Notes: a model not told the origin generated them from the sequence alone. A DNA stretch of 26,346 nt from an uncultured bacterium (GCA_964607485.1 CAZSKP010000054.1:1-26346), one strand, 5' to 3'. Counted from the first letter of the stretch, positions 14 through 21,382 are shown. Translations and numbers: made by a program.

Positions 14-41
14 AAAAAACGGCGGGCGCCATCCCCCGCCG
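14..41 (-). terminator. Intrinsic terminator downstream of pilin 1
   Basis: 7-bp GC stem CGGCGGG (20-26) / CCCGCCG (35-41) with an 8-nt loop. The A6 tract at 14-19 reads U6 on the minus strand. It lies about 70 nt past the pilin stop. Confidence 0.8.
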
Positions 42-108: not shown

Positions 109-615
109 TTAGCTACCGACCGGTGGGAAAGCGGTTGCCGACGGCGGAGTGTCCGTCGCGCGGACGCCAGCTCGACCGGCCACGTCGCTTCCACGCAGCA
201 CGCCGGACTCATCGATGATAAACGTGCGGTTTCCAGTCTGCCCAAACACCACCGGGCTTGCCGAACCGAACCACTGCACCTCGTCGGTGTTCGTGTTTCC
301 ACTGGTGGTAATCGCGAAAGTATATCCCGACTTCGTACCGCCGCCCAGCACCTCGTCAATATAGGGCGGAGTGGCGTTGGACAACTGCGCGAGGCCGGCG
401 AATTCGCCCGTGCCATCGCCGTCGGCATCAGTGCCAGCACCCGACTGGAACGTGCTCTGCGCGCTCGACATGGTCCTCATCGCGCCGATTGCCGCGGATT
501 CGTTTGAAGCCAGACGCGCACGCAGCAAGTTCGGAATCGCGATGGCGGCTATGATGGCGATAATCGCCACGACGATCATCAACTCAATCAGCGTAAAACC
601 TTTGTTGCCTCTCAT
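109..615 (-). CDS. pilA: Type IV pilin, probable major pilin (class III signal peptide; DUF2950-like head)
   Basis: MRGNKG|FTLIELMIVVAIIAIIAAIAIP with G-1/F+1/E+5. Strong SD AAGGAGGT at 622-629, own sigma54 promoter and terminator. No Cys; DADGDG motif; Ser/Thr-rich. Confidence 0.9.
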   Translation of the reverse strand: MRGNKGFTLIELMIVVAIIAIIAAIAIPNLLRARLASNESAAIGAMRTMSSAQSTFQSGAGTDADGDGTGEFAGLAQLSNATPPYIDEVLGGGTKSGYTFAITTSGNTNTDEVQWFGSASPVVFGQTGNRTFIIDESGVLRGSDVAGRAGVRATDTPPSATAFPPVGS

Positions 616-744
616 GTTCTTACCTCCTTACTGTGATGGGATAGCATTTGTCAATTTACAATGCCATTACACTGTACTCTCTCCAACCCTATTGCCTCAC
701 CTCCCGCCTGCATAAGCATTGCTTTTCATTCCAAGATGAGAATG

Positions 745-761
745 AGCAATTTGCATACCAA
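745..761 (-). promoter_or_regulatory. Sigma54 -24/-12 promoter for pilin 1
   Basis: Minus strand reads TTGGTATGCAAATTGCT: GG-N10-GC, close to the TGGCAC-N5-TTGC consensus. Intergenic and correctly oriented; PilS/PilR are encoded in the locus. Confidence 0.85.
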
Positions 762-863
762 CCTGCCCCAACGCCTCCTCTTCACCAACGGCCTGAACGC
801 GGAAATTGCCGTCAATAAAGGGAAAAAGCAGCCAAATTCTCGGTCTAACATGTGCGTTGAACC

Positions 864-943
864 CGTCCATTTTCCCCATGTTCCAACAGCCTTTCTTCAT
901 GTACTTCATGACAAAAACCGTCGCTGGACGTCGATTTTCGGCA
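864..943. promoter_or_regulatory. Candidate enhancer (UAS) boxes for a sigma54 activator, probably PilR
   Basis: Three related 15-mers: CGTCCATTTTCCCCA (864-878), TGACAAAAACCGTCG (909-923) and CGTCGATTTTCGGCA (929-943). The last two form an imperfect inverted pair (11/15). They lie about 100-180 bp upstream of the -24 element. Confidence 0.45.
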
Positions 944-944
944 T

Positions 945-1469
945 TCACTGAGACACCGCAGGATAGTTACCCCCAAAGGCAGGGGCGGCGGTCAGCCGCG
1001 TTGCGGGGGTTCCAGCAGCGCCCACCACACCGCCTACATCGCTTCCTCTTAACACGCCCGATTCGTCGATGTAGAAAGTCCTGTTGCCACTCCGACCCTT
1101 ACTGATGGGAAAGGCAGTCGCCTCCCACAATATTTCGTCGCTGTCGGGAACGCCCGTCGTAGTAACCGAAAAAAGATAGCCCGACTTCTGTCCGCTGCCC
1201 AGGCTGTTGTCTATAAACGCAGGCACCGCGCTGCTCAACTGCGAGAACGAGCCGAATTCCCCGATGCCGTCCCCATCAGCATCCGTCGCGCTCATGCCCT
1301 GGAAGGCTATTTGCGCGCTCGACAGCGTCCTCATCGCGCCGAGGGCGTTGGCCTCATTCGCCGCCAACTTGGAGCGCAGCAGGCGGGGTATCGCTATTGC
1401 CGCAAGGATGACGATGATCGAAACGACGATCATCAACTCGATCAACGTAAAACCGGAATTCCTCTTCAT
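945..1469 (-). CDS. Type IV pilin paralog (pilin 2)
   Basis: MKRNSG|FTLIELMIVVSIIVILAAIAIP. Collinear with pilin 1 (MRTxSSAQ, TDADGDGxGEF, KSGY, GNRTFxIDESGVLRGSDV). No Cys; SD-like GGGAG upstream. Confidence 0.9.
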   Translation of the reverse strand: MKRNSGFTLIELMIVVSIIVILAAIAIPRLLRSKLAANEANALGAMRTLSSAQIAFQGMSATDADGDGIGEFGSFSQLSSAVPAFIDNSLGSGQKSGYLFSVTTTGVPDSDEILWEATAFPISKGRSGNRTFYIDESGVLRGSDVGGVVGAAGTPATRLTAAPAFGGNYPAVSQ

Positions 1470-1518
1470 AAACTATTTCTCCCATTGGTATTTCAGAAAT
1501 ATTTCGGATAGGCCAAAG

Positions 1519-1535
1519 AGCAAGAACTGTACCAA
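1519..1535 (-). promoter_or_regulatory. Sigma54 -24/-12 promoter for pilin 2
   Basis: Minus strand reads TTGGTACAGTTCTTGCT (GG-N10-GC) in the 75-bp gap upstream of pilin 2. Confidence 0.8.
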
Positions 1536-1544
1536 ATACTTACA

Positions 1545-3938
1545 CTACTTTACGGTGGGCAGAGAATCGAGGATTGGAGACATGCGTGGATCATTCGAGG
1601 CTAAGTCATAAATATCTTTGTAATCAAGACTTAGAGCTTTCCCAAGGCTGCCGGAAGAACCCGTCCTGTCACCCTCCAGCGCCTGCAGACAAGCAAAGTT
1701 GTACCAGTTCTGGGCGTTGTCGGGCTCGAGCTCGACTGCCGTTTTCAGTAACTTTCTCGCACTTTCCGTTTCTCTTAGCCTGAGATAGACCACCCCAAGA
1801 GACGAGAGAACTTCGGGGGAGTCGGGCTTGAGCCGGAGAGCTTCTTGGAACATCTCTGCCGCCTTCCTGTTCTTCCCCATGTCGGCGTAGCAGAGCCCAA
1901 GGTTATGGTAATCCTCGAAACTGGGAACGTCGGAGGAAATCGCCCGGCGAAAATAGGGAACAGCCTTTCGGGCTTCGCCACGATTCAGGAATGCCTGTCC
2001 CACATTGTGGTTCGAGGCGGCATCGTCCGGATTGGCGCGGAAGGCCGCGAGAAATTTCTCGAACGCCTCGTCCTCTTCCCCGCGCTCGGCGAGTATTGCG
2101 CCGATGTTGTTCAACGCGCGCGAGTCGTTCGGGTAGAGCCGCAACGAATCTTCATAGAAGCGCTCGGCCGCAGCGATGTCGTTGTTCCACTGATAATAGA
2201 CGCCATAGTTGAATAGATGGTTCCCGTATATCCTTCCCGCCGCGAGGTCGTGGCCTATGCGCTCCCCTATCTCGACAGCATTCGGGACATCCGAAACATC
2301 TGAGGAAACCTTCTCGCCGGCCGGAAGGATTTGAAAAACCAAATGATGGGGGACAAACTGGTCCATCAGCAGTTGATTGGATTCAATCCCTTCCCAGAAT
2401 ATCGGAAACTTGGAGACGTTCATTTCGTAGAAGAGTTTGAAATAGGAATTTGCAAACCACGGCAATCCGTCTTTACGCGCGTGAAGGTGAGACGGACGAA
2501 CGCCTTCATCGCTCTCATAGTGAAATTCCTGGGGTATGTTCAACTCCGGATACCGGCGGCGGATTTGGTCCAGGTAGCCGGGCCTGGTCAATCCGTTCCG
2601 CGTGATGACCTTCACGTCGGTGCGGTAGTTCTCGCAGTACTGGAGGTACCAGCTTATGAACAGCGGATCGGCCGTCCCCGTTATGAGGACGGCGTCATGC
2701 GGGAGAGACGACAGCAGAGACTCGCCGTACTGTTTGGCGTACCGGTATCCCCGTTTATTGTTTTCCGGAAAATGAACGATGAGAAGAGCAAGGAAGAGCA
2801 GAACGGCCGCGCAGTGGAACGACCGCGCCAGAAGCCTTCCCCGCACGCCCGACAACGCCGAGGCGGCGCGCTCGGCCCATCCGCAAAGAGAGGCTGTGCC
2901 GAAGCCGAGCCAGATCGTAAGCATCAGCACCGCCGGCACGAGATACGCCGAGATGAACGCGCTGTTGAGGCTCACGAGAAAGAGAATCAGAATGACGATG
3001 GCCCCATATCCAATCACCGCTCTCTTTCCCGTTTTCCACAGTCCCAGCGCGCCCGCCAGCGCCAGCGCACACCCGGGCAGAGTCAGGTCGGAGAGAAACA
3101 AGTGGACAATGCTGCGGAGGCCCCGCGCAAAATCCACAAGGCCGGGAAGCCGCAACAGATTGGAGCTGTACTGCTGGGCAGTCACAACCCACAGGAAATT
3201 CTTGAGCGTTTCCGGATTCCCCCAGTCTATGGCGGGGTCGAACCGCGAGCGAAGCGGAAGATACGCGTAAACCGAAAGGCCGAGCAGGAACAGCGCGACC
3301 ATCGCGAGCAGCCTGGCGGGCTTGAAAAGCTTCAGGCGCAGGCCGGACAACAGAATGAAGGCCACAGAAGGCGCGAAAAACAGTCCGGCCACGTGGTTGG
3401 TGAAGCTCAGTCCGTAAATGAAGCTGAAAGCAAGGAGCCGCCGCGTCAACCGCGGGGAGTCCGGACCAGCCGCCTCGATTCGAAATGCCAGCAACGTCAC
3501 TGTCAACATGAAAAACGAGTGCAGCGTCGTCGTCTCGGCGACGACGGACTGCTCCCATAGTGTAGAAGAAAACGCGCCGCATAAGGCCGCGGTCACGCCT
3601 GCAAAATTCGCAAAGCGTCCAATTCGCTCTTCCCGCCGCACCAGCTCGCGAACAATCTGAAACAGCATCGCGCACGTGAGCGCTCCGAAGAAGGCAGACA
3701 TCAGGTTGACGCGATACGCCGGAGAACCGAGCGGGACAAGCGTGAACAGCTTTCCGAGAATCGCGTAGAGAGGATGGCCGGGCGGATGCGGGATGCCGAG
3801 CGTGTAACAGGCGGCGATCAACTCGCCCGCGTCGTCCCAGTACACGGTCGGACAGAGCGTGTATGCGTACACGAAAAGAACCATTCCGAAAAGCGCCGCT
3901 GCAATGAAAAGGTGTGAGCGGGTCTTGAGCACATTCAT
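1545..3938 (-). CDS. DUF2723/TMEM260-like multi-pass GT-C glycosyltransferase with C-terminal TPR array (copy 1)
   Basis: N-terminal TLCPTVYWDDAGELIAACYTLGIPHPPGHPLY...GSPAYRVNLMSAFFGA and later DWGNPETLKNF match the DUF2723 signature. Many hydrophobic segments, followed by a soluble domain and multiple TPRs ending WYNFAC...DP. Confidence 0.85.
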   Translation of the reverse strand: MNVLKTRSHLFIAAALFGMVLFVYAYTLCPTVYWDDAGELIAACYTLGIPHPPGHPLYAILGKLFTLVPLGSPAYRVNLMSAFFGALTCAMLFQIVRELVRREERIGRFANFAGVTAALCGAFSSTLWEQSVVAETTTLHSFFMLTVTLLAFRIEAAGPDSPRLTRRLLAFSFIYGLSFTNHVAGLFFAPSVAFILLSGLRLKLFKPARLLAMVALFLLGLSVYAYLPLRSRFDPAIDWGNPETLKNFLWVVTAQQYSSNLLRLPGLVDFARGLRSIVHLFLSDLTLPGCALALAGALGLWKTGKRAVIGYGAIVILILFLVSLNSAFISAYLVPAVLMLTIWLGFGTASLCGWAERAASALSGVRGRLLARSFHCAAVLLFLALLIVHFPENNKRGYRYAKQYGESLLSSLPHDAVLITGTADPLFISWYLQYCENYRTDVKVITRNGLTRPGYLDQIRRRYPELNIPQEFHYESDEGVRPSHLHARKDGLPWFANSYFKLFYEMNVSKFPIFWEGIESNQLLMDQFVPHHLVFQILPAGEKVSSDVSDVPNAVEIGERIGHDLAAGRIYGNHLFNYGVYYQWNNDIAAAERFYEDSLRLYPNDSRALNNIGAILAERGEEDEAFEKFLAAFRANPDDAASNHNVGQAFLNRGEARKAVPYFRRAISSDVPSFEDYHNLGLCYADMGKNRKAAEMFQEALRLKPDSPEVLSSLGVVYLRLRETESARKLLKTAVELEPDNAQNWYNFACLQALEGDRTGSSGSLGKALSLDYKDIYDLASNDPRMSPILDSLPTVK
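3822..3845. repeat. 24-bp exact repeat shared by the two DUF2723 genes (second copy 6212-6235)
   Basis: CTCGCCCGCGTCGTCCCAGTACAC occurs at both sites and encodes VYWDDAGE on the minus strand. Confidence 0.85.
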
Positions 3939-6322
3939 CCCGGAACCCTCTCTTTCGAGAGATCATCAGAGAATTCTCTCAAGTCGGCGTCATCCCGCGC
4001 CCGTTCAAGCATCGCGTCTCCACCGACCTCGACCGAGCGTCTCAGTGCGCTCAGCGCGCTCTCACGGCTTCCGACACGGGCATAATACTTGGCCAGCGCG
4101 AACAAGCCGGCAGCGGAATTCGGGTCCAGCTCCAGCGCCCTGTCCAGAACGGTCTTCGCCTCGTCGAGCCGTCCGGTCTGAATATAGACAGAGGCAAGTC
4201 CTCTGAGAGCAAATACATAGGTTGGTTCGACCTCGAGCGCCTCCTCGAATTTTTCGGCCGCGTCCTCGTTCTGGCCCACGAGTAAGTAGAGCTGGCCCAT
4301 GGCGGTCATCGCCTCGTAGTAACTCGGACACAGACGCGTCGCCTTGCGATACGCCAAGAAAGCGTCACCGAACCGGCCAAGGTTTCTGTACGCGTTTCCG
4401 AGCCCGTAGTAGGCGGTGGCCATGTAGGGGTTTCCCCGAACAGCGAGGCGATACTGACGAGCCGCCACGTCGTGATGACCGGCGCGCGCCTCTATCCTGC
4501 CGAGGTTGTATCGGCTGATGGGAAAATCCGGATTGAATTTCAGCGCGAGCTCGATCGCCCATCTGGAGAGGTCGTCGCGCCCCAACTCTTCAAACATGAG
4601 TCCTATATTGTTAAGCTCCACGGGGTATATTTCCTGCGCGACCTTGTCCCTCTTCATTGAGGGATTGCGCAGGAGAAATTCCAACTCGGAATCCCAAAAC
4701 TCGCGATTACGGACCAGCATCTCGTCGTCCAATACCACCGGCTGGGGAGAATAGCGACTCACAATGCCCTGTGGAACGAGATTCCGCGAAAAAGGGAGGC
4801 CGCGCGAGATAATTCCCCAGTAGATCGGCCGTCGCTTGCAGTTCTCATCCAGGATGGCCTGAATCTTCAGATACTTTCTCATCTCCGGGGTATCACCCTC
4901 CGAAAGACGACTTGCGACATCCTCAGCGGCCGGAAGAAGGAGGTCGGGATATTGTTCCATTACCTGCGAGCTGAGCGCGTTGTTCCCAGATAACCACGTG
5001 GGCTCTATGACCATCAGGTCGGGCCGCCGGTTCTCGCAATGAATAAGATACCAGAGTATGAACAGCGCATATCCGTCAACGGTAAAGAAAGCCGAGTCTT
5101 TGGGCAACCGGTCGAGAATCTCTTCACCGTAGCGCAGGGCGTACAGGTCGTCGCTTCGGTCCATATCTTTGAAATGCATTGTCAGGGGGAGCACAAAGCT
5201 TAAAGAGAGGGCCACGCAGAGCGTCGGGCTCACAACCATGGCGACCGACCGAGCCCTGATTCGCCCCGAAAGTCGGATTATCCATCCAAACGATTGCTGA
5301 AGGCCCACCCCTATCCAGATTGCCATGAGGGCCAGCGCGGGGATGAAATACGCAGAGATGAACGCCGTGTTAAGCTCGATGTAGAAGAGGACCATGATGA
5401 CCAGCAGGCTGAATATGACTACCCGCCTCTCACCCCGGAGGAGCGTCCACGCTCCCACTACTCCCAACGCGCAGCCCACGACGGTGAACTGATGAAGCAG
5501 ATCCTGTCCACGAAGGTAAAGGTTCGCCGCTATGGCAAACACATTCGGTTCGCTGAGAAGATTCGGAGAAAACTGTCTGGCCGTCACTACCCAGAGGAAG
5601 TTCGTCAGGTTCTCCGGGTTGCCCCAATCGAGCGGCGGGTTGGCCAGCGACCTTATGGGCAGGTACGCATACACCAGCAATCCGACTGCCGCCCAGAACA
5701 GCATCTTCAGCAGAGTGCGCGGCATGAAAAGGCGCTTTCCATACGTTGCTATGAAAATGTATGCGAAGGCCGGGAAGAAGAAAACCCCCGCCACGTGATT
5801 CGTGAGGCTGAACCCATACAGGAAGCTGAACAGGCAGAGCGACCGCGACTCGTTCTTCCAAATGATCCCGCCCGACGCCATGCGAAATGCGAGAAGGGTG
5901 AGCAGCATCATGAAGAAGCAATGGAGGGTCGAGTTTTCGGCAACCGTGGCCTGGTCCCACACGGTGGGCGAGAACGCGAAGAAAAACGCCCCTCCCAGAG
6001 CCGCCGCCGGCTTCCACAAGCTCTCCTCGAGCCGCTCGCCGATTATCAGATACACGAGCAGACAACTGACCGCCCCGAAGAACGCCGACATGAAATTAAC
6101 GCGCCATGCTACCGACCCCGCCGGTATCAGGGTGAACGCCTTACCGATGAGCGCATACAGGGGATGGCCCGGGGGATGCGGGATACCGAGCGTGTAAGCC
6201 GCGGTTATCAGCTCGCCCGCGTCGTCCCAGTACACCGTCGGGCAAAGTGTGAGGGTGTAGACGACCAGGGAGAAAGCAAACGCAAGCCAGCCCACTCGCT
6301 TTCCAAAGGTCGAGAGGTTCAT
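3935..6322 (-). CDS. DUF2723/TMEM260-like GT-C glycosyltransferase with TPR array (copy 2)
   Basis: TLCPTVYWDDAGELITAAYTLGIPHPPGHPLY...WRVNFMSAFFGA, LTNHVAG and DWGNPENL motifs, then TPRs. Its stop overlaps the copy 1 start (ATGA at 3935-3938), and it abuts the GT2 stop. Confidence 0.85.
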   Translation of the reverse strand: MNLSTFGKRVGWLAFAFSLVVYTLTLCPTVYWDDAGELITAAYTLGIPHPPGHPLYALIGKAFTLIPAGSVAWRVNFMSAFFGAVSCLLVYLIIGERLEESLWKPAAALGGAFFFAFSPTVWDQATVAENSTLHCFFMMLLTLLAFRMASGGIIWKNESRSLCLFSFLYGFSLTNHVAGVFFFPAFAYIFIATYGKRLFMPRTLLKMLFWAAVGLLVYAYLPIRSLANPPLDWGNPENLTNFLWVVTARQFSPNLLSEPNVFAIAANLYLRGQDLLHQFTVVGCALGVVGAWTLLRGERRVVIFSLLVIMVLFYIELNTAFISAYFIPALALMAIWIGVGLQQSFGWIIRLSGRIRARSVAMVVSPTLCVALSLSFVLPLTMHFKDMDRSDDLYALRYGEEILDRLPKDSAFFTVDGYALFILWYLIHCENRRPDLMVIEPTWLSGNNALSSQVMEQYPDLLLPAAEDVASRLSEGDTPEMRKYLKIQAILDENCKRRPIYWGIISRGLPFSRNLVPQGIVSRYSPQPVVLDDEMLVRNREFWDSELEFLLRNPSMKRDKVAQEIYPVELNNIGLMFEELGRDDLSRWAIELALKFNPDFPISRYNLGRIEARAGHHDVAARQYRLAVRGNPYMATAYYGLGNAYRNLGRFGDAFLAYRKATRLCPSYYEAMTAMGQLYLLVGQNEDAAEKFEEALEVEPTYVFALRGLASVYIQTGRLDEAKTVLDRALELDPNSAAGLFALAKYYARVGSRESALSALRRSVEVGGDAMLERARDDADLREFSDDLSKERVPG

Positions 6323-7057
6323 CTAAGCACCGGCGTTTCGCTCGGACCGCAGGTAAACGGCCCTGTGAAAGGTTCGCTTCCACCAGAATCCGAACAGGTC
6401 TTTCACCGTTCTCCATATGACCGCGGCGCTTCCGCAGGCCGCCTTGCCGCCCGAGCGGGGAACGTAGGTGATGTCAACCTCCCGGAGGCGGTATCCGAGG
6501 TCCCGCGCCTTTATCATTATCTCGGCCGTTATGAAGACGCCCCGCGACTCGATGCTCATCCGCTTGAGCATCTCTCTTCGGTACATATGGATGTAGTTGA
6601 ACTGGCGTTCCTTCATGCCGAACAACAGCTTTATGAGAGCGATATTAACGAGCGAAACGAACTTTCGGGCGAGCGAATAATCACGGCGGTCGGAACGTAT
6701 CCCGACGACGAGGTCGCACTCGCGCGAGGCATCGATGTACTTGTGAAGCTCGTTGAGGTCGAGCGCGAGGTCGGCTGGAATGAATATCACGAACTCGCCC
6801 CGGCTGGCCTCGATTCCTGTGAAAACTCCGCTGCCGGGGCCGAGGTTGCACGGATGATCGATCAATAGGATGCGGGCGTCGGCTTCGGCGAGCTCAACGG
6901 CAATGGCACGTGTGCGGTCGGTGCTTCCGTCGTTCACGATGATTATCTCGAAACTTGTCGAGAGCTCATCGAGCTTGTGGGCGACGAGTGTGACCGAGGA
7001 GCGGAGGTTGGCCTCTTCGTTGAAAGCGGGCACGACGACGGACAGGTAAGGTCTCAT
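6323..7057 (-). CDS. GT2 glycosyltransferase, Dpm1/polyprenol-phosphate sugar synthase-like (244 aa)
   Basis: LSVVVPAFNEE, IIVNDGSTD, IPADL (DxD variant), GIRS and EVDITYVPRSGG. Start moved to ATG 7057 (GGAGG upstream) because the longer ORF-track version overlaps the acyltransferase; GTG 7066 is an alternative. Confidence 0.85.
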   Translation of the reverse strand: MRPYLSVVVPAFNEEANLRSSVTLVAHKLDELSTSFEIIIVNDGSTDRTRAIAVELAEADARILLIDHPCNLGPGSGVFTGIEASRGEFVIFIPADLALDLNELHKYIDASRECDLVVGIRSDRRDYSLARKFVSLVNIALIKLLFGMKERQFNYIHMYRREMLKRMSIESRGVFITAEIMIKARDLGYRLREVDITYVPRSGGKAACGSAAVIWRTVKDLFGFWWKRTFHRAVYLRSERNAGA

Positions 7058-7062
7058 TCCAT

Positions 7063-7572
7063 TCACCGCCTCCGAATCAATCTTGCCGGAACCCCGCCGA
7101 CCACCGTGTACGGTTCCACGTCGCGACACACAACCGCGCCGGCGCCCACCTGGGCTCCCTTTCCCACCGTTACTCCGGGAAGGAGCACCGCCGCCGTGCC
7201 GATGTCGGCGTCGTCCTCGACTGTGACCGGCTTGAACACGATGGGCGTGTGGAGTATCGGCATGGAAACGTCCTTGCCCTCGTGATGCGAAGTGATTATC
7301 CTCACCCCGGGGCCTATACCGACGTTCGAGCCGACTATCAGGCCGCCTGCGCTGTGGAAGAAGCACTGCTGGCCTATCCACGTGCCGCTTCCTATCACCA
7401 TCTTGTTCTTGTGGTATCCCTTCAGAATGGTGTTGTGCCCGATATAGACATCGTCGCCGATCTCGATGTTTTCGGGATGGAAAATGAGCACGCCCGCCTC
7501 AAACACAACGTCTTTGCCGAGGCGGGCCAGCTTTGAAATATCCGGCGCTCCGCTGCCGTGAGATTTCGCCAT
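7063..7572 (-). CDS. Hexapeptide-repeat (left-handed beta-helix) sugar acyltransferase
   Basis: Repeated IG-x-x-V-x-IG units, a TSHH motif and the C-terminal VGAGAVVCRDVEPYTVVGGVPARLIR typical of the Maa/LacA/WcaF-like family. Confidence 0.9.
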   Translation of the reverse strand: MAKSHGSGAPDISKLARLGKDVVFEAGVLIFHPENIEIGDDVYIGHNTILKGYHKNKMVIGSGTWIGQQCFFHSAGGLIVGSNVGIGPGVRIITSHHEGKDVSMPILHTPIVFKPVTVEDDADIGTAAVLLPGVTVGKGAQVGAGAVVCRDVEPYTVVGGVPARLIRRR

Positions 7573-7617
7573 TGTAACGCCCGATCGTTTTGCGCTCTGT
7601 TTCCTGGCCTTTTTCCT

Positions 7618-8655
7618 CTAGAGATGCTCCGCCACGTGCTCGACCGGTTCCCTGTGTTCGTGAACCAATCCGGGCGTCTTCCCGCTTTCCATCTGCGATC
7701 GATACCAGTCGATGGTGCGGGTCAGCCCTTCGTTCAAATCGACTTTGGGCCGAAAGCCCAACAGCTCGGTCGCCTTCTGAATGCTGGGTATCCTGAGCTC
7801 GACGTCCACATAGTCCTTCTTGACAACGACGATCTCGGAGCTTGAGCCGACGAGCGCCTTTATCTTCTCCGCAAGCGTGGCAATGGTGACGGTGCCCCTC
7901 GGGTTGCCTATGTTGAAAACGTGGCCCACCGCCTCGGGCCTTGTGAGCGTCAGCAGTATTCCGTCCACCATGTCGTCGATGTAGCACCACGCCCGTATCT
8001 GGTTGCCGTCGCCATGCACTTCGAGCGGCTGGTTGCTGAGAGCGCGGACGACGAACGTGTGGATCGCGCCCGCCCCGACCTGCCTGGGGCCGAACACGTT
8101 GAACGGACGGATCGAGACAGTGGGCAGGCCCGTCTCCTTCCCATAGTTGTGCACGAGATGCTCCGCCGCCAGCTTGCTGACGGCATAGGTCCAGCGCGCC
8201 TCGCCGACCGTCCCGAGCGTTGTGGCGCTCATCTCCTCGGCGTGATACACGTGGGTGCCGAACACCTCGCTCGTGGAGAAGTCAACGAACCTTTTCACAC
8301 GGGGGCCGTGCGCGACGGTGGCCTCGAGAACGTTGTACGTGCCAATGAAGTTTATCTTCATCGTCCTCGAGGGTACGCGGAGCACGGTGTCCACGCCCGC
8401 TATCGCCGCGAGGTGGAGCACCATGTCGGGGTCGGTCGTCTTCATGATCGAGCACAACTTCTCGTGGTCGAGCACATCGCCGTGAATGAAAAACAGGTTC
8501 GGATGCGTCCATGCAGGCGAGTCTTTCAGGGCATTGCGGTGCCCGTTATCGTACACGACTATCCTGTTGTGCTCCAGCAGCCTGTGAACAAGAGTCGTTC
8601 CGATGAACCCGGCGCCGCCGGTCAGGAATATCGTCTTGCCCCGTATTTCCTCCAT
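7618..8655 (-). CDS. NAD-dependent NDP-sugar epimerase/dehydratase/decarboxylase (extended SDR)
   Basis: TGGAGFIG, HLAA, STSEVFG, YAVSK (YxxxK) and RPFNVFGPRQ motifs. Confidence 0.9.
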   Translation of the reverse strand: MEEIRGKTIFLTGGAGFIGTTLVHRLLEHNRIVVYDNGHRNALKDSPAWTHPNLFFIHGDVLDHEKLCSIMKTTDPDMVLHLAAIAGVDTVLRVPSRTMKINFIGTYNVLEATVAHGPRVKRFVDFSTSEVFGTHVYHAEEMSATTLGTVGEARWTYAVSKLAAEHLVHNYGKETGLPTVSIRPFNVFGPRQVGAGAIHTFVVRALSNQPLEVHGDGNQIRAWCYIDDMVDGILLTLTRPEAVGHVFNIGNPRGTVTIATLAEKIKALVGSSSEIVVVKKDYVDVELRIPSIQKATELLGFRPKVDLNEGLTRTIDWYRSQMESGKTPGLVHEHREPVEHVAEHL

Positions 8656-8683
8656 GTTCTCGGACTGTTCCTTTCTCAGCTCA

Positions 8684-9919
8684 TCAGGGATTAATCAGGG
8701 TCGAAAGCTTGAATATCGGCATGAACAGGGCCAGCACCATTCCGCCCACCACGACGCCGAGGAACAGTATCAGCAACGGCTCAATGAGCGAGGTCAGGCT
8801 GGCGATGGTCGCCTCCACCTGTTGGTCATAGAACTCGGCTATCTTTGAAAGCAACTCGTCGAGCGAGCCGGTTTTCTCGCCCACGTCGATCATCCGGGTG
8901 ACCATCAACGGAAACACGCCGCTCCGGGCCAGAGGCTCGGCGATCGTCGCGCCCGCCTTGATGCTCGACTGCGAATTCTTCACGGAGCGGGAGAGGACCT
9001 CGTTACCGATCGTCCGCTCGACTATCTCCAGCGCCGCGAGCACGGGCACGCCGCTTCGGGTAAGCGTGGACAGGGTGCGCGCAAACCGCGATACCGCCAC
9101 CTTCCTGAACAGCGCGCCGAACACCGGCAGCCTTAGCTTTAAGGTGTCGAACTGCATTCTGCCCGCGGCGGTGGAAACATAGTACCGCAGGGCAATACCG
9201 ATTGCAATGGCGATGCCGACTACAATCAGAATGTAGCTGCGCAGGACGTTGCTCACTTTGATGAGCATGAGTGTGGGCACGGGCAGAGTTCCCCCTAAGC
9301 TGCTGAATATGTCCTGAAACTTCGGCACGATAAACACGAGCAGGCCCGTCGCTATGACCACGACTATGACAAACGCCACGACCGGATATGTCATCGCGGA
9401 ACGGATCTCTCGCTTCAGCTTCTCGGTGGCCTCGAGGTACTCGGCAAGCTGCACGAGAATCCCGTCCAGATTGCCGCTGGCCTCACCCGCGCGGACCATG
9501 CTGGTATAGAGTTCCGGGAAGACCTTCGGGTGCTTCCTGAGCGCATCCGAGAACGTCAACCCGGCTTCGATGTCCTGCCCTACCTGTGTGAGCACGCGTT
9601 TGAAGTTCACCGATTCGGTCTGCTCTATCATGATGTCAATTCCCTGAAGGAGCGGCAGGCCGGAGTTGACCATGGTTGCGAGCGAGCGGGTGAACAACAG
9701 CATTTCTTCCGCTTTTACCTTCTTCCCCTTCATGGTGCCCGTGATGACGTCCTTGCGCGAGCCGGCCGCGGCTCCGCCGGAACGGCCGTCGGCCACGGAC
9801 GTGGGCACGAGCCCCTTGCTCCTCAATTTCTGGAGCAACTCCTGCTTATTATCGGCCTCCATCATGCCGGAGAGGCTGTTGCCCGATTTGTCGCGGGCCG
9901 TGTACTGAAACGTCGCCAT
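8684..9919 (-). CDS. pilC: Type IV pilus platform protein PilC (GspF family)
   Basis: FTRSLATMVNSGLPL, RAGEASGNLD, SAMTYP, GEKTGSLD and LIEPLLI motifs; 411 aa with TM segments. Confidence 0.95.
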   Translation of the reverse strand: MATFQYTARDKSGNSLSGMMEADNKQELLQKLRSKGLVPTSVADGRSGGAAAGSRKDVITGTMKGKKVKAEEMLLFTRSLATMVNSGLPLLQGIDIMIEQTESVNFKRVLTQVGQDIEAGLTFSDALRKHPKVFPELYTSMVRAGEASGNLDGILVQLAEYLEATEKLKREIRSAMTYPVVAFVIVVVIATGLLVFIVPKFQDIFSSLGGTLPVPTLMLIKVSNVLRSYILIVVGIAIAIGIALRYYVSTAAGRMQFDTLKLRLPVFGALFRKVAVSRFARTLSTLTRSGVPVLAALEIVERTIGNEVLSRSVKNSQSSIKAGATIAEPLARSGVFPLMVTRMIDVGEKTGSLDELLSKIAEFYDQQVEATIASLTSLIEPLLILFLGVVVGGMVLALFMPIFKLSTLINP

Positions 9920-9961: not shown

Positions 9962-11347
9962 TTAGTTTTCCTTGCCCTTCATGTTGTACTTCTCCAGCTT
10001 GTATCTAAGCGACCTCGGTGAGAGCTGAAGCAGCCGGGCCGCCTTCGTCTGCGAGTTGGACGTCCGCTTCATGGCCTGTTTAATCAGCGAACGCTCAAAG
10101 GCCTCTACGCGACTGTTCAAGTGTATTCCCTCCGAGGGGAATTCAGCCGCGTAAGGCTCCTCCACCGCCGAATCGCACAGCTTCCTCGGCAGGTCATGGG
10201 GCTCTATCGCGCCGCCGTTGCACAATGCGGCCGCCCTCTCGATCACGTTTTCGAGTTCCCTCACGTTGCCCGGCCAGCGGTACTGTTCGAGTATCTTCTC
10301 GGTCTCGGGCGAGATGGAGATCTTTCTGCCGGCGCGCACGCAGAATTCCTGGAGGAAATGCCTGGCCAGCAACAGAATATCCTCGCGCCTCTCCCGCAGC
10401 GAGGGCACGTACAGCGGAATGACATTGAGACGATAGTAGAAATCCTCCCTAAACTTCCCCTCAGAGACCACCTTTTCGAGGTCCTTGTTCGTCGCGGATA
10501 TGAGCCGAACGTCCACGGAAAAATCCGAGGCGCTGCCGACGGGACGTATCTTCATCTCGTCGAGAACCCTCAGAAGCTTCACCTGCAGGGCCATGCTTGT
10601 CTCGCCTATTTCGTCCAGGAACAGGCTGCCGCCGCTGGCCACCTTAAACAGTCCGTCTTTGTGAGAAATGGCGCCGGTGAACGCGCCCTTGACATGGCCG
10701 AACAGCTCGCTCTCGAGCAGATTCTCCGGAATTCCGCCGCAGTTTATCGCCACAAACGGCTTGTCGCTCCGAGCGCTGCAGTTATGTATCGCCTTGGCGA
10801 CGAGTTCCTTTCCCGTTCCGCTTTCGCCCCGTATCAGCACGGTGCTGGACAGGCAGGCCACCTTGTGTATCAGATCCTTCATGTCGTTCATGGGGGTGCT
10901 GTTTCCCACCAGGTCATCCAACCTGCCGATTTTCTTCAGTTCCGAGCGGAGCACTTTGTTTTCGGCGCGAAGCTTCCTGCTCTCGAGCGCCTTCTCGACA
11001 ATCAGCTTGAGCTCATCGTTCTTGAACGGCTTAATCAGGTAGTCGTACGCCCCCAGCTTCATGGCCTCGACGGCGGAGTCGACGGAACTGTGAGCCGTTA
11101 TGACGATGGAGGGAATGAACCCGTCGGAATGTTGAGCCTGTTTGAGAATCTTGATGCCGCCATGCCTGTCCTCGTTCAGCCAGAGGTCGGTAATCAGAAG
11201 GTCCCACAGTTCCTCTCTCAGCTTCTTTGAGGCCTCCTCGTAGGACTCGACTCCCTGCGCCTCGTACCCCTGCTTTTCGAGCATTATGGCCAGCAACTCC
11301 CGCATGCTCGGTTCGTCTTCGACTATCAGAATTCGATATCTTTCCAT
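9962..11347 (-). CDS. pilR: Sigma54-dependent response regulator PilR (REC-AAA+-Fis HTH)
   Basis: REC (IVEDE, ITD, KPF), GESGTGKE, ESELFGHVKGAFTGA, FLDEIG, WPGNVREL and an HTH. Adjacent to the PilS-like kinase. Confidence 0.85.
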   Translation of the reverse strand: MERYRILIVEDEPSMRELLAIMLEKQGYEAQGVESYEEASKKLREELWDLLITDLWLNEDRHGGIKILKQAQHSDGFIPSIVITAHSSVDSAVEAMKLGAYDYLIKPFKNDELKLIVEKALESRKLRAENKVLRSELKKIGRLDDLVGNSTPMNDMKDLIHKVACLSSTVLIRGESGTGKELVAKAIHNCSARSDKPFVAINCGGIPENLLESELFGHVKGAFTGAISHKDGLFKVASGGSLFLDEIGETSMALQVKLLRVLDEMKIRPVGSASDFSVDVRLISATNKDLEKVVSEGKFREDFYYRLNVIPLYVPSLRERREDILLLARHFLQEFCVRAGRKISISPETEKILEQYRWPGNVRELENVIERAAALCNGGAIEPHDLPRKLCDSAVEEPYAAEFPSEGIHLNSRVEAFERSLIKQAMKRTSNSQTKAARLLQLSPRSLRYKLEKYNMKGKEN

Positions 11348-11357
11348 TTTTCTTCCT

Positions 11358-12986
11358 TCAATCTTGTCTGGGCAGCACGACTGTTACCGTGGTCCCCTTC
11401 CCCCTGGCGCTCTCCACATCGATCGAGCCTCCATGCGAGGCAACTATCCTGTGGGCGATCGCCATGCCTAGGCCGACTCCTCTCGGCTTCGTCGTGTAAA
11501 AAGGGTCAAAGATTCTTTCCACCTCCTCAGGAGCCAGCCCACAGCCGTCATCTTCCACAAAAACGCTGGCATAGCCCGGCGGGCTATCATCCGCTCCCGC
11601 ACGGACCCGCAGCGTACCCCCCGCGGGCATCGCCTCTATGCCGTTCTGAACGATGTTCAACAGAGCTTCCCTTATCTGGCTGCAGTCGCCCGTCACGCAT
11701 CCGAGGCCATCCGGATACTGCCTGAGAATGGAAATGTCTCCATTGCAGAAGCACCGCTCTGCCAGTTGCACGACCTCGTCCAGAATCCGGCGCATGTCGC
11801 ATTGTTCTCTTGCGCGAGGGCCTGTGCCGACAAACTCGAGAAAGTCAGTAACTATCCTGTTCAGTTGGTCGCACTCCCTCGTCGCTATCTTGATCAACTG
11901 CCCGTTTGTCCCGTCGAGGAGCAGGTTTTCGGCAAGCTCCTGAACGGCTCCCCTGATTGAGGCCACGGGGTTTCTGATTTCATGCGCGAGGACGGCAGAC
12001 ATCTCGCCGACCGCGGCCAGCCTGTCGGACCTCCTCAGCCTTTCCTCCATCCGCTTGAGTTCGGTAAGGTCTATGAAACTCGCGACCGCGCCCATGAGCT
12101 TCTTGGCGCCGTTTCGTATGGGCGACACGGTTATTCCGACGGGAATCGATTCACCGTCACCCCGGCTCACGGCGACCTCTCGGCTCTGGTATTCTTTCTG
12201 TTCGGCTATCGACTCCTCCAGCGGGTTGGGTTGGCCGTCAGCCACGGGGAACACGCACGAAACGTGTTTGCCGGCGGCCTCCGACCACGGGCGCCGAAGC
12301 AGGTTCGAGCCCGCCGGATTCAGAAACGTGACGATGCAGTCGCGGTTCACGCTCATGAATCCGCTCGAGAAGCTGTTCAGAATGTTCTGCTGGAACGATT
12401 CAAGCAGTCCGACCTGGCGAGACAGACAGCCGGCCAGGAACGCCGTCAGGTAAAAGGCAAAGACCTTCATCCCGGTGTAGGCCCACATGTCGCCCGAGAC
12501 CATCGGAGGCTCGCTCCACCTGAAGGCGGACTCGGGGACGACATAGCCGCTTTGCTCCAGAAGCATGATGAGCAGAAAGAGCGCCGAACACATCGTGGCG
12601 ACAAGAACGCTCCAATTGAACGAAAGCAGGATGGCGGCCGACAATATTGCGGCGATATACAGGAAGGCGAAAACGCTTTTGCCGCCGCCCGTCACGACGA
12701 CAATGGCGCTTATCAGGATGAGGTCGGCGCACAGCAGGAGAAAGGAGAAGCGAATCGACGGATTGTAGCCGGCCGCCAGAATGACCATAACGATCAACGA
12801 CTCGATCAGCGCGATGACGAAGATCGCGAAAAGGTAGTACGTATACTGGTCGGACTCCGTCCCGCTCCTGATGTGCAGCGCCAAGCACAGAAGGGCGACG
12901 ATCGACACGATCATTGCACGAGCCAGCGCAAACCGTTTCAGGATCAGCTTGCCCTGCTCCACATCGGTCTTGAAAGGATCGATCAT
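11358..12986 (-). CDS. pilS: Membrane sensor histidine kinase PilS
   Basis: About six N-terminal TM helices, PAS, AHEIRNP H-box, N-box, DDGCG and FDPFYTTK/GVGLG. Located in the pil locus. Confidence 0.85.
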   Translation of the reverse strand: MIDPFKTDVEQGKLILKRFALARAMIVSIVALLCLALHIRSGTESDQYTYYLFAIFVIALIESLIVMVILAAGYNPSIRFSFLLLCADLILISAIVVVTGGGKSVFAFLYIAAILSAAILLSFNWSVLVATMCSALFLLIMLLEQSGYVVPESAFRWSEPPMVSGDMWAYTGMKVFAFYLTAFLAGCLSRQVGLLESFQQNILNSFSSGFMSVNRDCIVTFLNPAGSNLLRRPWSEAAGKHVSCVFPVADGQPNPLEESIAEQKEYQSREVAVSRGDGESIPVGITVSPIRNGAKKLMGAVASFIDLTELKRMEERLRRSDRLAAVGEMSAVLAHEIRNPVASIRGAVQELAENLLLDGTNGQLIKIATRECDQLNRIVTDFLEFVGTGPRAREQCDMRRILDEVVQLAERCFCNGDISILRQYPDGLGCVTGDCSQIREALLNIVQNGIEAMPAGGTLRVRAGADDSPPGYASVFVEDDGCGLAPEEVERIFDPFYTTKPRGVGLGMAIAHRIVASHGGSIDVESARGKGTTVTVVLPRQD

Positions 12987-13002: not shown

Positions 13003-14067
13003 TCAGAATCCCTTTCCCATGAGCCTCAGAAGATCTTCCTGATTCATGCTGCTCTCCAGGGCCTGCTCGTAAGAGATTTGACCGTTCTTGTACAGCTTGT
13101 GAAGGCTCTGGTTCATCGTCTGCATGCCGAGCGCTCCGCCCGTGCTTATGGCGGAATATATCTGATGCAGCTTGTCCTCACGCACAAGACTTCTTATGGC
13201 AGGGGTCGCCACCATGATCTCCAGCGAGAGCACCCTCCCGTTCATGTCCTTTCGTGGAAGCAGCTTCTGAACGATCACGCCCTCCAGCACGAAGGAGAGC
13301 TGCGTGCGCACCTGCAGCTGCTGATGCGGAGGGAAGACGTCGACCATTCGGTTGATGGACTGAGTGGCGTCATTGGAGTGGAGTGTGGCGAAGACGAGGT
13401 GCCCCGTCTCGGCGACGGTCAGCGCCGCCTCTATTGTCTCGAGGTCGCGCATCTCTCCGATCATTATCACATCGGGGTCCTGCCTGAGAATATGCTTCAG
13501 GGCCGCCCCAAACGAGTGAGTGTCGGCGTACACCTCGCGCTGGTTGATGATGCTCAGCTTGTGCGCGTGCAAATATTCAATCGGGTCCTCGATCGTCACC
13601 ACATGGCAGCGCCTTTCGAGGTTGATCTTGTTGATAAGCGCGGCGAGCGTCGTGCTCTTGCCGCTGCCCGTGGGCCCGCATACGAGAATCAACCCCTGCT
13701 GTCTCTCGGCCATTTCGCGGACGCACTTGGGCAGTCCCAGATCTTCAAAGCCCGGCACCTCGTAAGGGATAGTACGTATCGCGGCACTCACCGAACCGCG
13801 GTCAACGAAGAGGTTCACGCGAAACCGGCTCAGCCCCTTTATCCCAAACGACATGTCGAGTTCCTTTTCTTTCTCGAATTCCTTTATCTGATGCTCGGTC
13901 AGGATGCTGTATGCAAGGCTTTTCGTCGCATCCGGAGTGAGGGGATCGGCATCCATCGGATACAGCTCTCCGTCGATTCGAAGCTGTGGTGGAAGGCCCA
14001 CGACGAGGTGAAGGTCGGAGGCGTTGTTTTCGATTATCTGCTGACACAATTCTTCAAGCTGCATCAT
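13003..14067 (-). CDS. pilT: Retraction ATPase PilT
   Basis: ASDLHL, GPTGSGKST, TIEDPIEY, LRQDPDVIMIGEMRD, AETGHLVFATLH, AIRSLVRE (AIRNLIRE-like) and GMQT. Confidence 0.95.
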   Translation of the reverse strand: MMQLEELCQQIIENNASDLHLVVGLPPQLRIDGELYPMDADPLTPDATKSLAYSILTEHQIKEFEKEKELDMSFGIKGLSRFRVNLFVDRGSVSAAIRTIPYEVPGFEDLGLPKCVREMAERQQGLILVCGPTGSGKSTTLAALINKINLERRCHVVTIEDPIEYLHAHKLSIINQREVYADTHSFGAALKHILRQDPDVIMIGEMRDLETIEAALTVAETGHLVFATLHSNDATQSINRMVDVFPPHQQLQVRTQLSFVLEGVIVQKLLPRKDMNGRVLSLEIMVATPAIRSLVREDKLHQIYSAISTGGALGMQTMNQSLHKLYKNGQISYEQALESSMNQEDLLRLMGKGF

Positions 14068-14202: not shown

Positions 14203-14219
14203 AGCAATTCCTGTGCCAA
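14203..14219 (-). promoter_or_regulatory. Sigma54 -24/-12 promoter upstream of pilT
   Basis: Minus strand reads TTGGCACAGGAATTGCT, essentially consensus, in the 247-bp pilB-pilT gap. Confidence 0.88.
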
Positions 14220-14314: not shown

Positions 14315-16030
14315 CTAATCCGGGGCGGTGACACGGAGGGTTTCCTCCAGGGTGGTGAGTCCGCCTTTCACCTTCGTAAGCCCGACCTGCCGAAGAGTGA
14401 GCATACCGTTTTCGATCGCCGTGCGCTTTATCTCTCCGGAGGGAGCGGAGGCCATTATGAGGTCCTGGATATTTTCCCTCACGCGCAGGACCTCCAACAG
14501 CGCGACCCTGCCGCGATAGCCCGTCTCACCGCAACGCGGGCATCCCTGACCTTTTGAGAGGACGATCTTCTCGCCCGACTCCGAGTGGAATTGCGCCCTT
14601 CTGAGCACCTGTTCGGGCACCCGGTACGATTGCCGGCAATCGGGACAGATTTTTCGGACGAGGCGCTGCGCCGCGGCCATGAGCATCGAGGAAGCGATGA
14701 GGAACGGCTCCATCCCCATGTCGATAAGCCTCGTGATCGCACCGGGAGCGTCGTTGGTGTGGAGTGTGCTCAGCACGAGGTGGCCGGTGAGAGCCGCTTT
14801 GATGGCTATGTCGGCCGTCTCTTCGTCACGAATTTCTCCGACCATGACGATGTCGGGGTCCTGACGCAATATCGACCTGAGACCGGAGGCGAAGGTGAGC
14901 CCCACTTCAGGCTTGGCCTGCACCTGGTTGATGCCGTGGAGATTGTACTCCACCGGGTCTTCGACGGTTACTATGTTGACGTCCAGCTTGTTCAGCATGT
15001 GGAGCGCAGAGTACAGGGTTGTCGTCTTACCGCTGCCGGTCGGGCCGGTGACGAGGATGATTCCATTCGGGCTGCCAAGGCTATCGCGAAAATCGTTGAG
15101 CGGTTGTTCCTCGAAGCCGAGCTTGTCCAGGTCGAGCTGGAGGGCGCCCTTGTCGAGGATTCGAATAACGACCTTTTCGCCGAAGCAGGTGGGAAGCGTC
15201 GATACACGGAAGTCTATCTCCCGGCCTTCGAACTTTATCCGAAAGCGGCCGTCCTGCGGAACCCGCCGCTCGGCGATGTCCATCTCGCACAAAACCTTCG
15301 TGCGTGAAACGACCGCCGCCTGGAGCCCTTTGGGCGGCGACTGGACTTCTCTGAGAACGCCGTCCACGCGGTATCGCACACGAACCTGTTTTTCAAACGG
15401 CTCGATATGGATGTCGCTCGCTCCCTCCTTTATAGCGTTGACGAGAATGAGGTTAACAAGCCGGATGACGGGCGCCTGCTCGACCTCTTTCTTCAGATGA
15501 CTTATGTCAATTTCTCCCTTATCCTCCAACAAGGTGACGACGTCCGCCTGGGCGTCTCGGAGGATATCCTCGTAGTCGTCGGTCTCCGAATCGCCGCCGC
15601 CGTAGTAGCGGTCGATCGCCTTCTTCACCTCGGAATCCAGACACACGACGGTCTCGATCTCGTGTCCGGTAAGCATTCGGACATCGTCGACGGCGACGAT
15701 ATTCAACGGGTCGGACATCGCGATCGTCAGCGAGTTGCCCGTCCGTGCGACCGGTATCAGGTGGTATCGCTTCGCGATGCCGTCGGGCACCTCGGCGAGC
15801 ACCTCGGCCGGAATCTCGTAGCTTTCAACCCGAAGATGGGGGATGCCCAACTGCTCGCTCAGGGTAATGACAATGTCCTCCTCACTGACGAGGCCGGAAT
15901 TGATCAGAATCGCAACGAGCGGTTGGCCGGTTCGTCTCTGCTCATACAACGCCTGAGAGAGCTGCTCGGACGTCAGCAATCGTTCTTCGAGCAGGATGTC
16001 GCCCAAACGCTTCTTGAGAGTTTCAACCAT
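14315..16030 (-). CDS. pilB: Assembly ATPase PilB with N-terminal MshEN-like domain
   Basis: KRLGDILL...QL...L..Q, ASDIHIEP, GPTGSGKTTT, LRQDPD, LTGHLVLSTLHTND, a tetracysteine motif (CPDC...CPRC) and GYRGR. Confidence 0.95.
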   Translation of the reverse strand: MVETLKKRLGDILLEERLLTSEQLSQALYEQRRTGQPLVAILINSGLVSEEDIVITLSEQLGIPHLRVESYEIPAEVLAEVPDGIAKRYHLIPVARTGNSLTIAMSDPLNIVAVDDVRMLTGHEIETVVCLDSEVKKAIDRYYGGGDSETDDYEDILRDAQADVVTLLEDKGEIDISHLKKEVEQAPVIRLVNLILVNAIKEGASDIHIEPFEKQVRVRYRVDGVLREVQSPPKGLQAAVVSRTKVLCEMDIAERRVPQDGRFRIKFEGREIDFRVSTLPTCFGEKVVIRILDKGALQLDLDKLGFEEQPLNDFRDSLGSPNGIILVTGPTGSGKTTTLYSALHMLNKLDVNIVTVEDPVEYNLHGINQVQAKPEVGLTFASGLRSILRQDPDIVMVGEIRDEETADIAIKAALTGHLVLSTLHTNDAPGAITRLIDMGMEPFLIASSMLMAAAQRLVRKICPDCRQSYRVPEQVLRRAQFHSESGEKIVLSKGQGCPRCGETGYRGRVALLEVLRVRENIQDLIMASAPSGEIKRTAIENGMLTLRQVGLTKVKGGLTTLEETLRVTAPD

Positions 16031-19579: not shown

Positions 19580-19673
19580 GAGGCGAGGCAGCTTTCGAGG
19601 AACCCCCGGTCATATGTCCGAACACGGGCCACGTTTAGCGAACCGCCTCACCATCCGAGGAGGCAATTGAAAA

Positions 19674-21326: not shown

Positions 21327-21343
21327 TTGGCACAACCCTTGCA
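21327..21343 (+). promoter_or_regulatory. Sigma54 -24/-12 promoter for the receiver/Ser-Thr kinase pair
   Basis: TTGGCACAACCCTTGCA, near consensus, 40 nt upstream of ATG 21383 and preceded by an AT-rich tract. Confidence 0.88.
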
Positions 21344-21382
21344 AAAAGGAGTGAACGGAGGGTACTACGTTTGGGAGGAGAA

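Follow-up and report, generated by a model that had tools for sequence, protein, structure and literature searches.

The window analysed here is the whole of a 26,346-nt stretch of DNA from an uncultured bacterium (GCA_964607485.1 CAZSKP010000054.1:1-26346). Our subject is the group of enzyme genes lying in it between the type IV pilus (T4P) gene pilC and two prepilin genes, which may serve the O-glycosylation of pilins. On the minus strand, the order is pilB, pilT, pilS, pilR, pilC, a short-chain dehydrogenase/reductase (SDR), an acetyltransferase, a family 2 glycosyltransferase (GT2), two TMEM260-like glycosyltransferases of the GT-C type with tetratricopeptide repeats (TPRs), two prepilin genes and a hairpin. 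The platform protein gene pilC (8684..9919; PF00482 3.8e-63; PilC models at 1e-120, under their cut-offs) forms the upstream end of a tightly packed run. After it come an extended SDR acting on sugar nucleotides (7618..8655, 345 aa; PF01370 4e-56), a left-handed beta-helix (hexapeptide) acetyltransferase (7063..7572, 169 aa; PF00132), a short soluble GT2 (6323..7057, 244 aa; PF00535), GT-C protein A (3935..6322, 795 aa) and its paralogue, GT-C protein B (1545..3938, 797 aa), both with C-terminal TPRs. Behind this run lie the candidate acceptors, prepilin 1 (945..1469, 174 aa; N_methyl, PF07963, 5.6e-9) and prepilin 2 (109..615, 168 aa; PF07963 6.5e-10; leader MRGNKG ahead of FTLIELMIVV). Domains were sought with Pfam in 23 open reading frames (ORFs) of the window, and NCBIfam was also searched.

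From pilC onward the intergenic gaps are 28, 45, 5, 0 and -4 nt, and 75 nt separate the last GT-C stop codon from the start of pilin 1. To judge from this spacing, the enzyme genes would be read through from pilC. An earlier note on this DNA had given the same genes and places, and the gaps of 45, 5, 0 and -4 nt exactly; it read the cluster as a pathway in which a modified sugar is loaded onto polyprenyl phosphate and then transferred to pilin Ser/Thr by TMEM260-type enzymes.

Both GT-C proteins scored well above the PF11028 gathering cut-off of 24.2 bits (B 131.1 bits, 5e-38; A 118.4 bits, 4e-34). When residues 1-550 of B were compared with the PDB by phmmer, the sole match was human TMEM260 (9rql/9rqm/9rqn, E=3.7e-39), with residues 14-484 of the query aligned to 30-501 of chain 9rql_A, a span that takes in all of the membrane module and the beginning of the luminal domain. 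Judged by these profile and pairwise scores, the two proteins are true homologues of human TMEM260, in agreement with the family assignment of the earlier note. A search of the ESM Atlas returned PF11028 clusters only. The motif WDDAGE...HPPGHP, earlier described as an intact DxGE...HPPGxP, is present, with WDDAGE following the first transmembrane (TM) helix. Its residues D36, G38, E39, H51 and G54 were invariant in 40/40 aligned homologues, hand-picked from the 120 matches listed. Their alignment served as the query of a single genome scan.

The AlphaFold2 model of B, built from the alignment of 40 sequences, is of high confidence (pLDDT 91.8, pTM 0.90). It has 11 TM helices (spanning 3-26 to 365-393), followed by strands at 417-537 and TPR helices at 554-796. 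This predicted order of parts is that of human TMEM260, in which 11 TM helices, an alpha/beta (Rossmann-like) domain and TPRs are likened to 'wrist, palm, fingers', and in which the alpha/beta and TPR module grips the peptide, as the accessible part of the structural report describes (10.64898/2026.03.17.711096). The structure prediction suggested in the earlier note thus yields a TMEM260/GT-C layout. With the WDDAGE loop 1 outside, the C-terminal alpha/beta and TPR domains would be placed in the periplasm. A Foldseek search of the full B model against the PDB gave TPR proteins only as top matches and was uninformative on the GT-C part.

The accessible part of the same report lists D52, H67, R264, Y267 and R355 as donor-site residues of TMEM260, and D441 in the alpha/beta domain as its catalytic base; D52 and H67 are essential in the human enzyme, and R264 and R355 bind phosphate and sugar (10.64898/2026.03.17.711096). 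In our alignment, D36 corresponds to D52 and H51 to H67, both of them invariant (40/40), and Y257 corresponds to Y267 (Y in 25 and F in 15 of the 40), so that B keeps the equivalents of D52, H67 and Y267. Protein A keeps the equivalents of D36, E39, H51, R230, R439 and D441. The bacterial proteins differ from the human enzyme in their host and in an active site that would face the periplasm and not the endoplasmic reticulum. They also carry a longer TPR part (~240 residues, vs ~140 in the human enzyme), and their acceptor cannot be an IPT domain.

The SDR has as its nearest PDB structure 8vr2 (1e-112), an entry without a functional name for which our literature search found no paper, followed by human UDP-glucuronate decarboxylase (2e-43) and ArnA decarboxylase domains at ~1e-30. 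It contains the motifs FSTSEVFG and YAVSK; we take STSEV to mark the UXS/ArnA type, as opposed to the STDEV of 4,6-dehydratases. By motif and PDB matches, the SDR therefore looks like a UDP-glucuronate decarboxylase of the UXS/ArnA type, similar to the C-terminal part of ArnA. This suggests a pentose-type donor and speaks for a sugar other than the mannose that TMEM260 takes from dolichyl phosphate (Dol-P). For the acetyltransferase, a WcaF-family subfamily came out on top in NCBIfam, and maltose and galactoside O-acetyltransferases did so in the PDB.

The GT2 had been called Dpm1-like, and its best matches bear this out. They were ArnC, PgfS, PpgS, AglJ and a Dol-P-hexose transferase in NCBIfam, all under cut-offs, and ArnC (6e-14), GtrB sll0501 and an archaeal Dol-P-mannose synthase (DPMS) in the PDB. 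By these matches the enzyme is of the polyprenyl-phosphate glycosyltransferase type, and a candidate polyprenyl-phosphate sugar synthase. Its short start is backed by orthologues at 100% coverage.

The genome scan gave 69 loci with TMEM260-like genes, 8 close and 61 distant, whose ORFs were compared with the window proteins by blastp and scanned for prepilin N-termini. Among the matches listed, the nearest named relatives were metagenome-assembled genomes (MAGs) of Candidatus Abyssobacteria (66% and 56% identity). Wherever the contig extends, gene order is kept in the window's own, Candidatus Abyssubacteria-like clade. Three relatives (L002, L003, L007) have pilR-pilC-SDR-acetyltransferase-GT2-GT-C-GT-C-GT-C-pilin-pilin, and so three GT-C paralogues, one more than the window and L004. 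Another, L010, has pilB-pilT-pilS-pilR-pilC-SDR-acetyltransferase-GT2 followed by three GT-C genes and two pilins, its GT-C genes being only ~34% identical to those of the window. L001 starts partway through the last GT-C gene and has both pilins after it, the same cluster recurs, cut by contig ends, at L004 and L005, and L006 is a 3.6-kb fragment with acetyltransferase-GT2-GT-C only. At L004, blastp gave no match to the acetyltransferase, and the SDR and GT2 lie 85 nt apart.

In all, pilus genes were found in 7/8 close loci, and in the close clade the GT-C genes have no further conserved neighbour that qualifies as a candidate acceptor. Because the arrangement recurs in relatives, it is not a chance juxtaposition. 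Orthologues of pilin 1 (62-75% identity) directly follow the last GT-C gene in L001, L002, L003 and L007, and orthologues of pilin 2 stand at the same place in these four and in L010.

The link recurs outside the clade. Pilus genes occur in the flanks of 11/61 distant loci, and TMEM260-like genes lie in or beside pilus operons in Patescibacteria, Planctomycetota, Thermodesulfobacteria and other phyla. The earlier note had stated that its reading would fall if linkage to pilins were not conserved in related genomes; the linkage is conserved there, and it recurs in unrelated phyla. In several operons the TMEM260-like gene lies among pilin and prepilin peptidase (PilD) genes: pilC-pilin-TMEM260-pilin-pilin-PilD (L049), pilC-pilin-YfhO-x-methyltransferase-TMEM260-pilin-PilD (L035) and pilB-pilT-pilC-pilin-YfhO-YfhO-TMEM260-PilD (L023). 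Others read pilin-YfhO-x-TMEM260-pilin (L037), pilC-pilin-TMEM260 (L053), pilC-pilin-x-TMEM260-YfhO-methyltransferase-TMEM260 (L067) and pilin-TMEM260+TPR (L055), and three more read pilR-pilin-TPR-GT2-TMEM260+TPR-x-GT2-PMT_2 (L032), pilC-x-pilin-YfhO-PMT_2...TMEM260+TPR (L029) and TMEM260-pilB-pilT-pilC-pilS-pilR (L060). At L020, a Hydrogenedentota TMEM260-like gene has a convergent neighbour 20 bp away, which encodes a DUF1559 protein with a prepilin-type N-terminus (6213-7223, minus strand; an in-frame start precedes this one in the ORF). In ten pilus-linked distant loci, Pfam covered 70/89 greedily called ORFs, the remainder being mainly ORFs named by blastp and a few short ones.

In 7/61 distant loci, the GT-C gene has a prepilin ORF within 500 bp (binomial P=2e-4 against a density of 0.02 per kb, which was taken from all distant flanks and is itself inflated by the link). 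Over all 69 loci, a prepilin is the nearest gene or a gene at most 500 bp away in 12. A quick maximum-likelihood tree was also computed. It comprises 87 GT-C modules, two of them the window's own and the other 85 taken from the loci, and leaves out ORFs of <430 aa or <45% coverage, hence L030, L053 and L066 are absent. The pilus-linked genes were placed in the Abyssubacteria-like clade, next to which L055 branches, in a clade of L067, L023, L049, L035 and L037, and on single branches. A strict adjacency label needs 5 changes on the 87-row tree, so the pilus link arose or was kept in several lineages.

As a separate observation, further enzymes are encoded in the stretch from the pilin to the prepilin peptidase at five of these loci (L023, L029, L035, L037 and L067), which come from MAGs of the candidate phyla radiation (CPR) type and others. 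Next to the TMEM260-like gene, this stretch holds a methyltransferase and GT-C genes of the YfhO family and the PMT_2 type. Pilus operons thus seem to have recruited several families of GT-C.

In our judgement, the best explanation of these findings, and a fairly probable one, is that the cluster encodes a periplasmic, lipid-carrier-dependent O-glycosylation module dedicated to type IV pilins. In the cytoplasm, the SDR would convert a UDP-sugar, most likely UDP-glucuronate to a UDP-pentose or 4-keto-pentose, as its motif and nearest structures suggest. The hexapeptide acetyltransferase may O-acetylate the sugar, a step for which one relative shows no matching enzyme. The short GT2, going by its family, would move the sugar onto polyprenyl phosphate, and the lipid-linked monosaccharide would be flipped by a component encoded outside the cluster. 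By homology, the 11-helix membrane module of the two GT-C enzymes would be where the donor binds. An extended stretch of prepilin or pilin may be held by the alpha/beta and TPR domains in the periplasm, as human TMEM260 holds its peptide, and the enzymes would then transfer the sugar to pilin Ser/Thr. The pathway proposed in the earlier note is plausible and partly supported: its enzyme families and its linkage to pilins hold, and it had overstated the acceptor and the sugar, which, together with the substrate, we infer.

Several observations weigh against this explanation. In B, TMEM260 R264 corresponds to A254 (R in 9/40 homologues) and R355 to T341 (A in 23/40, the alignment being weak there), so neither arginine is kept, and the human catalytic base D441 falls on A423, with D424 adjoining. 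An acidic residue is present within loop 421-425 in 37/40 homologues; the three without it are P0024, P0013 and P0063, and the first two are orthologues of B itself. No flippase gene is present in the cluster. The pilins had been called Ser/Thr-rich, which they are only moderately: their S+T content is 17.8% and 19.0%, vs a mean of 11.0% in 13 other window proteins, a modest enrichment. The confidence of the pilin model (pLDDT 54) is too low for a glycosylation site to be proposed from it. Since two human donor-binding residues (R264 and R355) are not kept, and the UXS/ArnA-like SDR points to a pentose, the O-mannosyl transfer implied by likeness to TMEM260 is not to be assumed.

The surroundings of the family add to these points. 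Two TMEM260-like genes nested in the window's own clade (L008) have no pilus genes visible, on a contig that ends 309 bp past them. Among the distant loci, 50/61 have no pilus gene in their flanks, and no prepilin motif was found in these 50. Before L020 was re-scored, 51 loci had been classed as negative; these total 708 kb, and 28/51 have <3 kb on one side. The neighbours of the negative loci are heterogeneous, with Der GTPase and PlsY at five Hydrogenedentota loci, DUF4159 at three Elusimicrobia loci and GT2 at four loci. No N_methyl domain was found among them (Pfam on 125/155 ORFs, the others being short or contig-cut, one very long ORF and five more). Other acceptors must therefore exist for the family as a whole. 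Moreover, common ancestry links the loci of the CPR-type clade, so they cannot be counted independently, which leaves about four independent adjacencies.

These points bear on a different reading, in which the module glycosylates other periplasmic or surface proteins (minor pilins, other pilus parts or a broader secreted set) and sits in the pilus operon for the sake of co-regulation. By analogy with TMEM260, the alpha/beta and TPR domains argue for a protein acceptor of some kind. With most family members not beside pilins, and with two to three paralogues whose very different TPR domains could mean several unrelated acceptors, this reading deserves some weight. We nevertheless consider it unlikely, given the 12 loci at which a prepilin is closest or close by, the CPR-type operons that place GT-C genes between pilin and prepilin peptidase, and the close clade, where no rival acceptor gene travels with the cluster.

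A second alternative draws on the genes arnA, arnC and arnT, which the set of SDR, GT2 and GT-C mirrors: the SDR resembles the C-terminal domain of ArnA, ArnC is the best match of the GT2 in both NCBIfam and the PDB, and the GT-C would take the part of ArnT, decorating lipid A, the lipopolysaccharide (LPS) core or another glycolipid with a pentose. The scores, however, are far under the family cut-offs (GT2 65.9 bits vs 529 for ArnC; SDR 120 vs 777 for ArnA), and the cluster has no ArnB-type aminotransferase, formyltransferase or deformylase. The GT-C belongs to PF11028 and not to the ArnT type, and has the alpha/beta and TPR module that grips peptide in TMEM260, while the partner conserved across phyla is a pilin gene and not LPS genes. 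We regard such a pathway as improbable. Even less credible, and very improbable in our view, is that the two large proteins are mainly TPR scaffolds for pilus assembly of the PilF/PilW/Tgl kind, with a degenerate or accessory GT-C part. Source names of homologues such as 'Tfp pilus assembly protein PilF' and 'TadD', and TPR-only NCBIfam matches that include PilW and Tgl, would agree with it. Yet the names, which we rejected, and the matches, which are under cut-offs, are driven by TPR repeats alone, whereas the GT-C motifs are invariant, the sugar-donor genes would be co-transcribed by their spacing, and TMEM260-like genes without TPRs fill the same place in CPR-type operons.

Dedicated pilin glycosylation by an enzyme of this layout would have a precedent. 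According to the accessible part of the report on it, TfpW of Pseudomonas aeruginosa has a cytoplasmic N-terminus and 11 predicted TM helices, and exposes to the periplasm a loop 1 with an acidic DDX motif and a large TPR domain; its gene adjoins pilA, and a polyprenyl-phosphate-linked sugar is O-linked to several pilin Ser/Thr (10.1101/2020.04.19.049825). As far as that description goes, this group IV pilin D-arabinofuranosyltransferase shares with our GT-C proteins the layout and working logic. Common to both are an acidic loop-1 motif (here WDDAGE), C-terminal TPRs (here 554-797) and a gene directly beside a pilin gene (here at 75 nt, and likewise in L001, L002, L003 and L007). It differs in its donor genes, as no DprE1/DprE2-type genes were found among the 23 window ORFs scanned, and the cluster has instead two to three tandem paralogues with the SDR, acetyltransferase and GT2 donor set. 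The earlier note rightly named TfpW among the known routes of pilin glycosylation and underplayed how close it is: with the same layout beside pilA, the concept already has a precedent. TfpW is the closest functional precedent, and what would be new is that the TMEM260 family carries out a reaction already known for a TPR-bearing GT-C.

The PglL, TfpO (PilO) and PglS enzymes likewise modify Ser/Thr of type IV pilins in the periplasm from a lipid-linked donor. They differ in transferring preassembled undecaprenyl-pyrophosphate oligosaccharides and belong to another family, the PglL/TfpO type carrying a Wzy_C domain; no such O-antigen-ligase-type domain was matched by Pfam or NCBIfam in the proteins of 109-9919. 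As with the present cluster, tfpO adjoins pilA, again from the accessible text of that source (10.1101/2020.04.19.049825).

The systems GtrA/B/C, CsbB-GtcA-YfhO, Ppm1-Pmt and ArnC-ArnE/F-ArnT work in the way proposed here, with a GT2 charging polyprenyl phosphate with a monosaccharide that a GT-C then transfers outside the cytoplasm. The best matches of our GT2 are ArnC, GtrB and DPMS, and YfhO-family genes occur beside TMEM260-like genes in distant pilus operons. The present cluster differs from these systems in the missing flippase gene and in a proposed acceptor that is a pilin and not O-antigen, teichoic acid or lipid A. The GT2 is also short compared with ArnC and GtrB, which carry C-terminal membrane helices that it does not have.

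The two GT-C paralogues have diverged unevenly. Between A and B, identity falls from 47% in the TM part to 30% in the alpha/beta domain and 25% in the TPRs, whereas orthologues are 60-68% identical in all three. Between the paralogues, the donor module is thus better kept than the acceptor module, which fits one donor and different acceptor sites or pilins. The paralogues probably share one donor and serve different sites or the two different pilins. A broader possibility, which we put forward tentatively and hold somewhat doubtful, is that TMEM260-like GT-Cs, often accompanied by GT-Cs of the YfhO and PMT_2 types, make up a widespread class of pilin glycosyltransferases, hitherto unrecognised, in T4P operons of Abyssubacteria-like bacteria, Patescibacteria (CPR), Planctomycetota and Thermodesulfobacteriota. 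They would add single sugars from polyprenyl-phosphate donors, tandem paralogues keeping the donor module while their diverged TPR 'hands' would each suit a different pilin or site, and animal TMEM260 would be a eukaryotic offshoot of this bacterial lineage.

PF11028/DUF2723 is a large bacterial and archaeal family, with at least 566 confirmed stretches in the genome scan. Our literature search found no assigned substrate or bacterial function for it and nothing linking TMEM260 or YfhO to pilins; the papers that mention pilin glycosylation along with GT-C dealt with TfpW, Neisseria and TfpY, and the main text of the Abyssubacteria genome paper makes no mention of pili or glycosylation. If true, a pilin substrate would give a function, and a first substrate, to part of the family. 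The earlier note had offered it as a function for bacterial DUF2723 proteins at large; with 50/61 distant loci lacking pilus genes, it can apply to a subset at most. Pilin glycosylation would also gain a third class of enzyme next to TfpW and the PglL/TfpO type, and there would be bacterial models for the disease-linked human TMEM260. Pilin glycans shield Pseudomonas from pilus-specific phages, according to the accessible text of a published study (PMC11841053), and such protection may hold too for these uncultured lineages, including CPR bacteria.

Some further features of the pilins are recorded here. A co-fold of full-length GT-C B with mature pilin 1 scored 0.00 vs a mark of 0.32, without controls, and nothing is drawn from this score. 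A conserved 'GNRT/SF' stretch led us to consider N-glycosylation, an idea we gave up since L003, L007 and L010 do not keep the Asn. Both pilins are without cysteine and have in common a conserved D-x-D-x-D/N-G-x-G-E-F/Y loop, which we take to resemble a calcium-binding loop, as well as a V/I-T-T-T/S-G strand, likewise conserved, and a C-terminal tail rich in Pro, Ala and Gly, which is disordered in the model.

Possible transcription signals flank the pilin genes. A sigma-54-like -24/-12 site (1519..1534, minus strand; TGGTACAGTTCTTGCT, 1 mismatch) lies 50 nt upstream of the pilin 1 ATG, within the 75-nt gap that follows the GT-C stop codon, and a second one (745..760, minus strand; TGGTATGCAAATTGCT, 2 mismatches) lies upstream of pilin 2. 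A strong terminator-like hairpin with a T-run follows the second pilin gene (20..41, minus strand; 7 G-C pairs then TTTTTTATTG). In the whole window, the sigma-54-like pattern had 15 matches vs 9.9 expected, no excess over chance, so only the positions before the pilin genes, with PilR encoded nearby, are suggestive of each pilin gene carrying its own sigma-54-type site. PilR is a sigma-54 activator (9962..11347; Sigma54_activat) and is encoded next to pilS (11358..12986; 6TM_PilS + HisKA), pilT (13003..14067, 354 aa; T2SSE) and pilB (14315..16030, 571 aa; T2SSE + MshEN), all on the minus strand. Two matches to the sigma-54 consensus (TGGCAC-N5-TTGCW) are exact. One (14203-14218, minus strand) is 136 nt upstream of pilT, and the other (21328-21343, plus strand) is inside the 5' end of a response-regulator ORF (21305-21784) whose receiver domain begins only at residue 42, so its true start may be later.

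Elsewhere in the window, two ORFs, 19635-20960 (minus strand, 441 aa) and 22908-24134 (plus strand, 408 aa), match no Pfam or NCBIfam family at E<=0.001. Among the distant loci, an Armatimonadota contig (L018, 18-13999) has a tandem array of seven TMEM260-like genes and no pilus genes in the vicinity. Directly upstream of pilB in the window, a 462-aa protein (16053-17441, minus strand) combines an N-terminal MshEN domain, which binds cyclic di-GMP (PF05157 3e-17; NF053729 5.6e-16), with a DnaA-type AAA+ ATPase (PF00308 2.6e-56), and partial homologues of it are found at the same place in L005 and L010.

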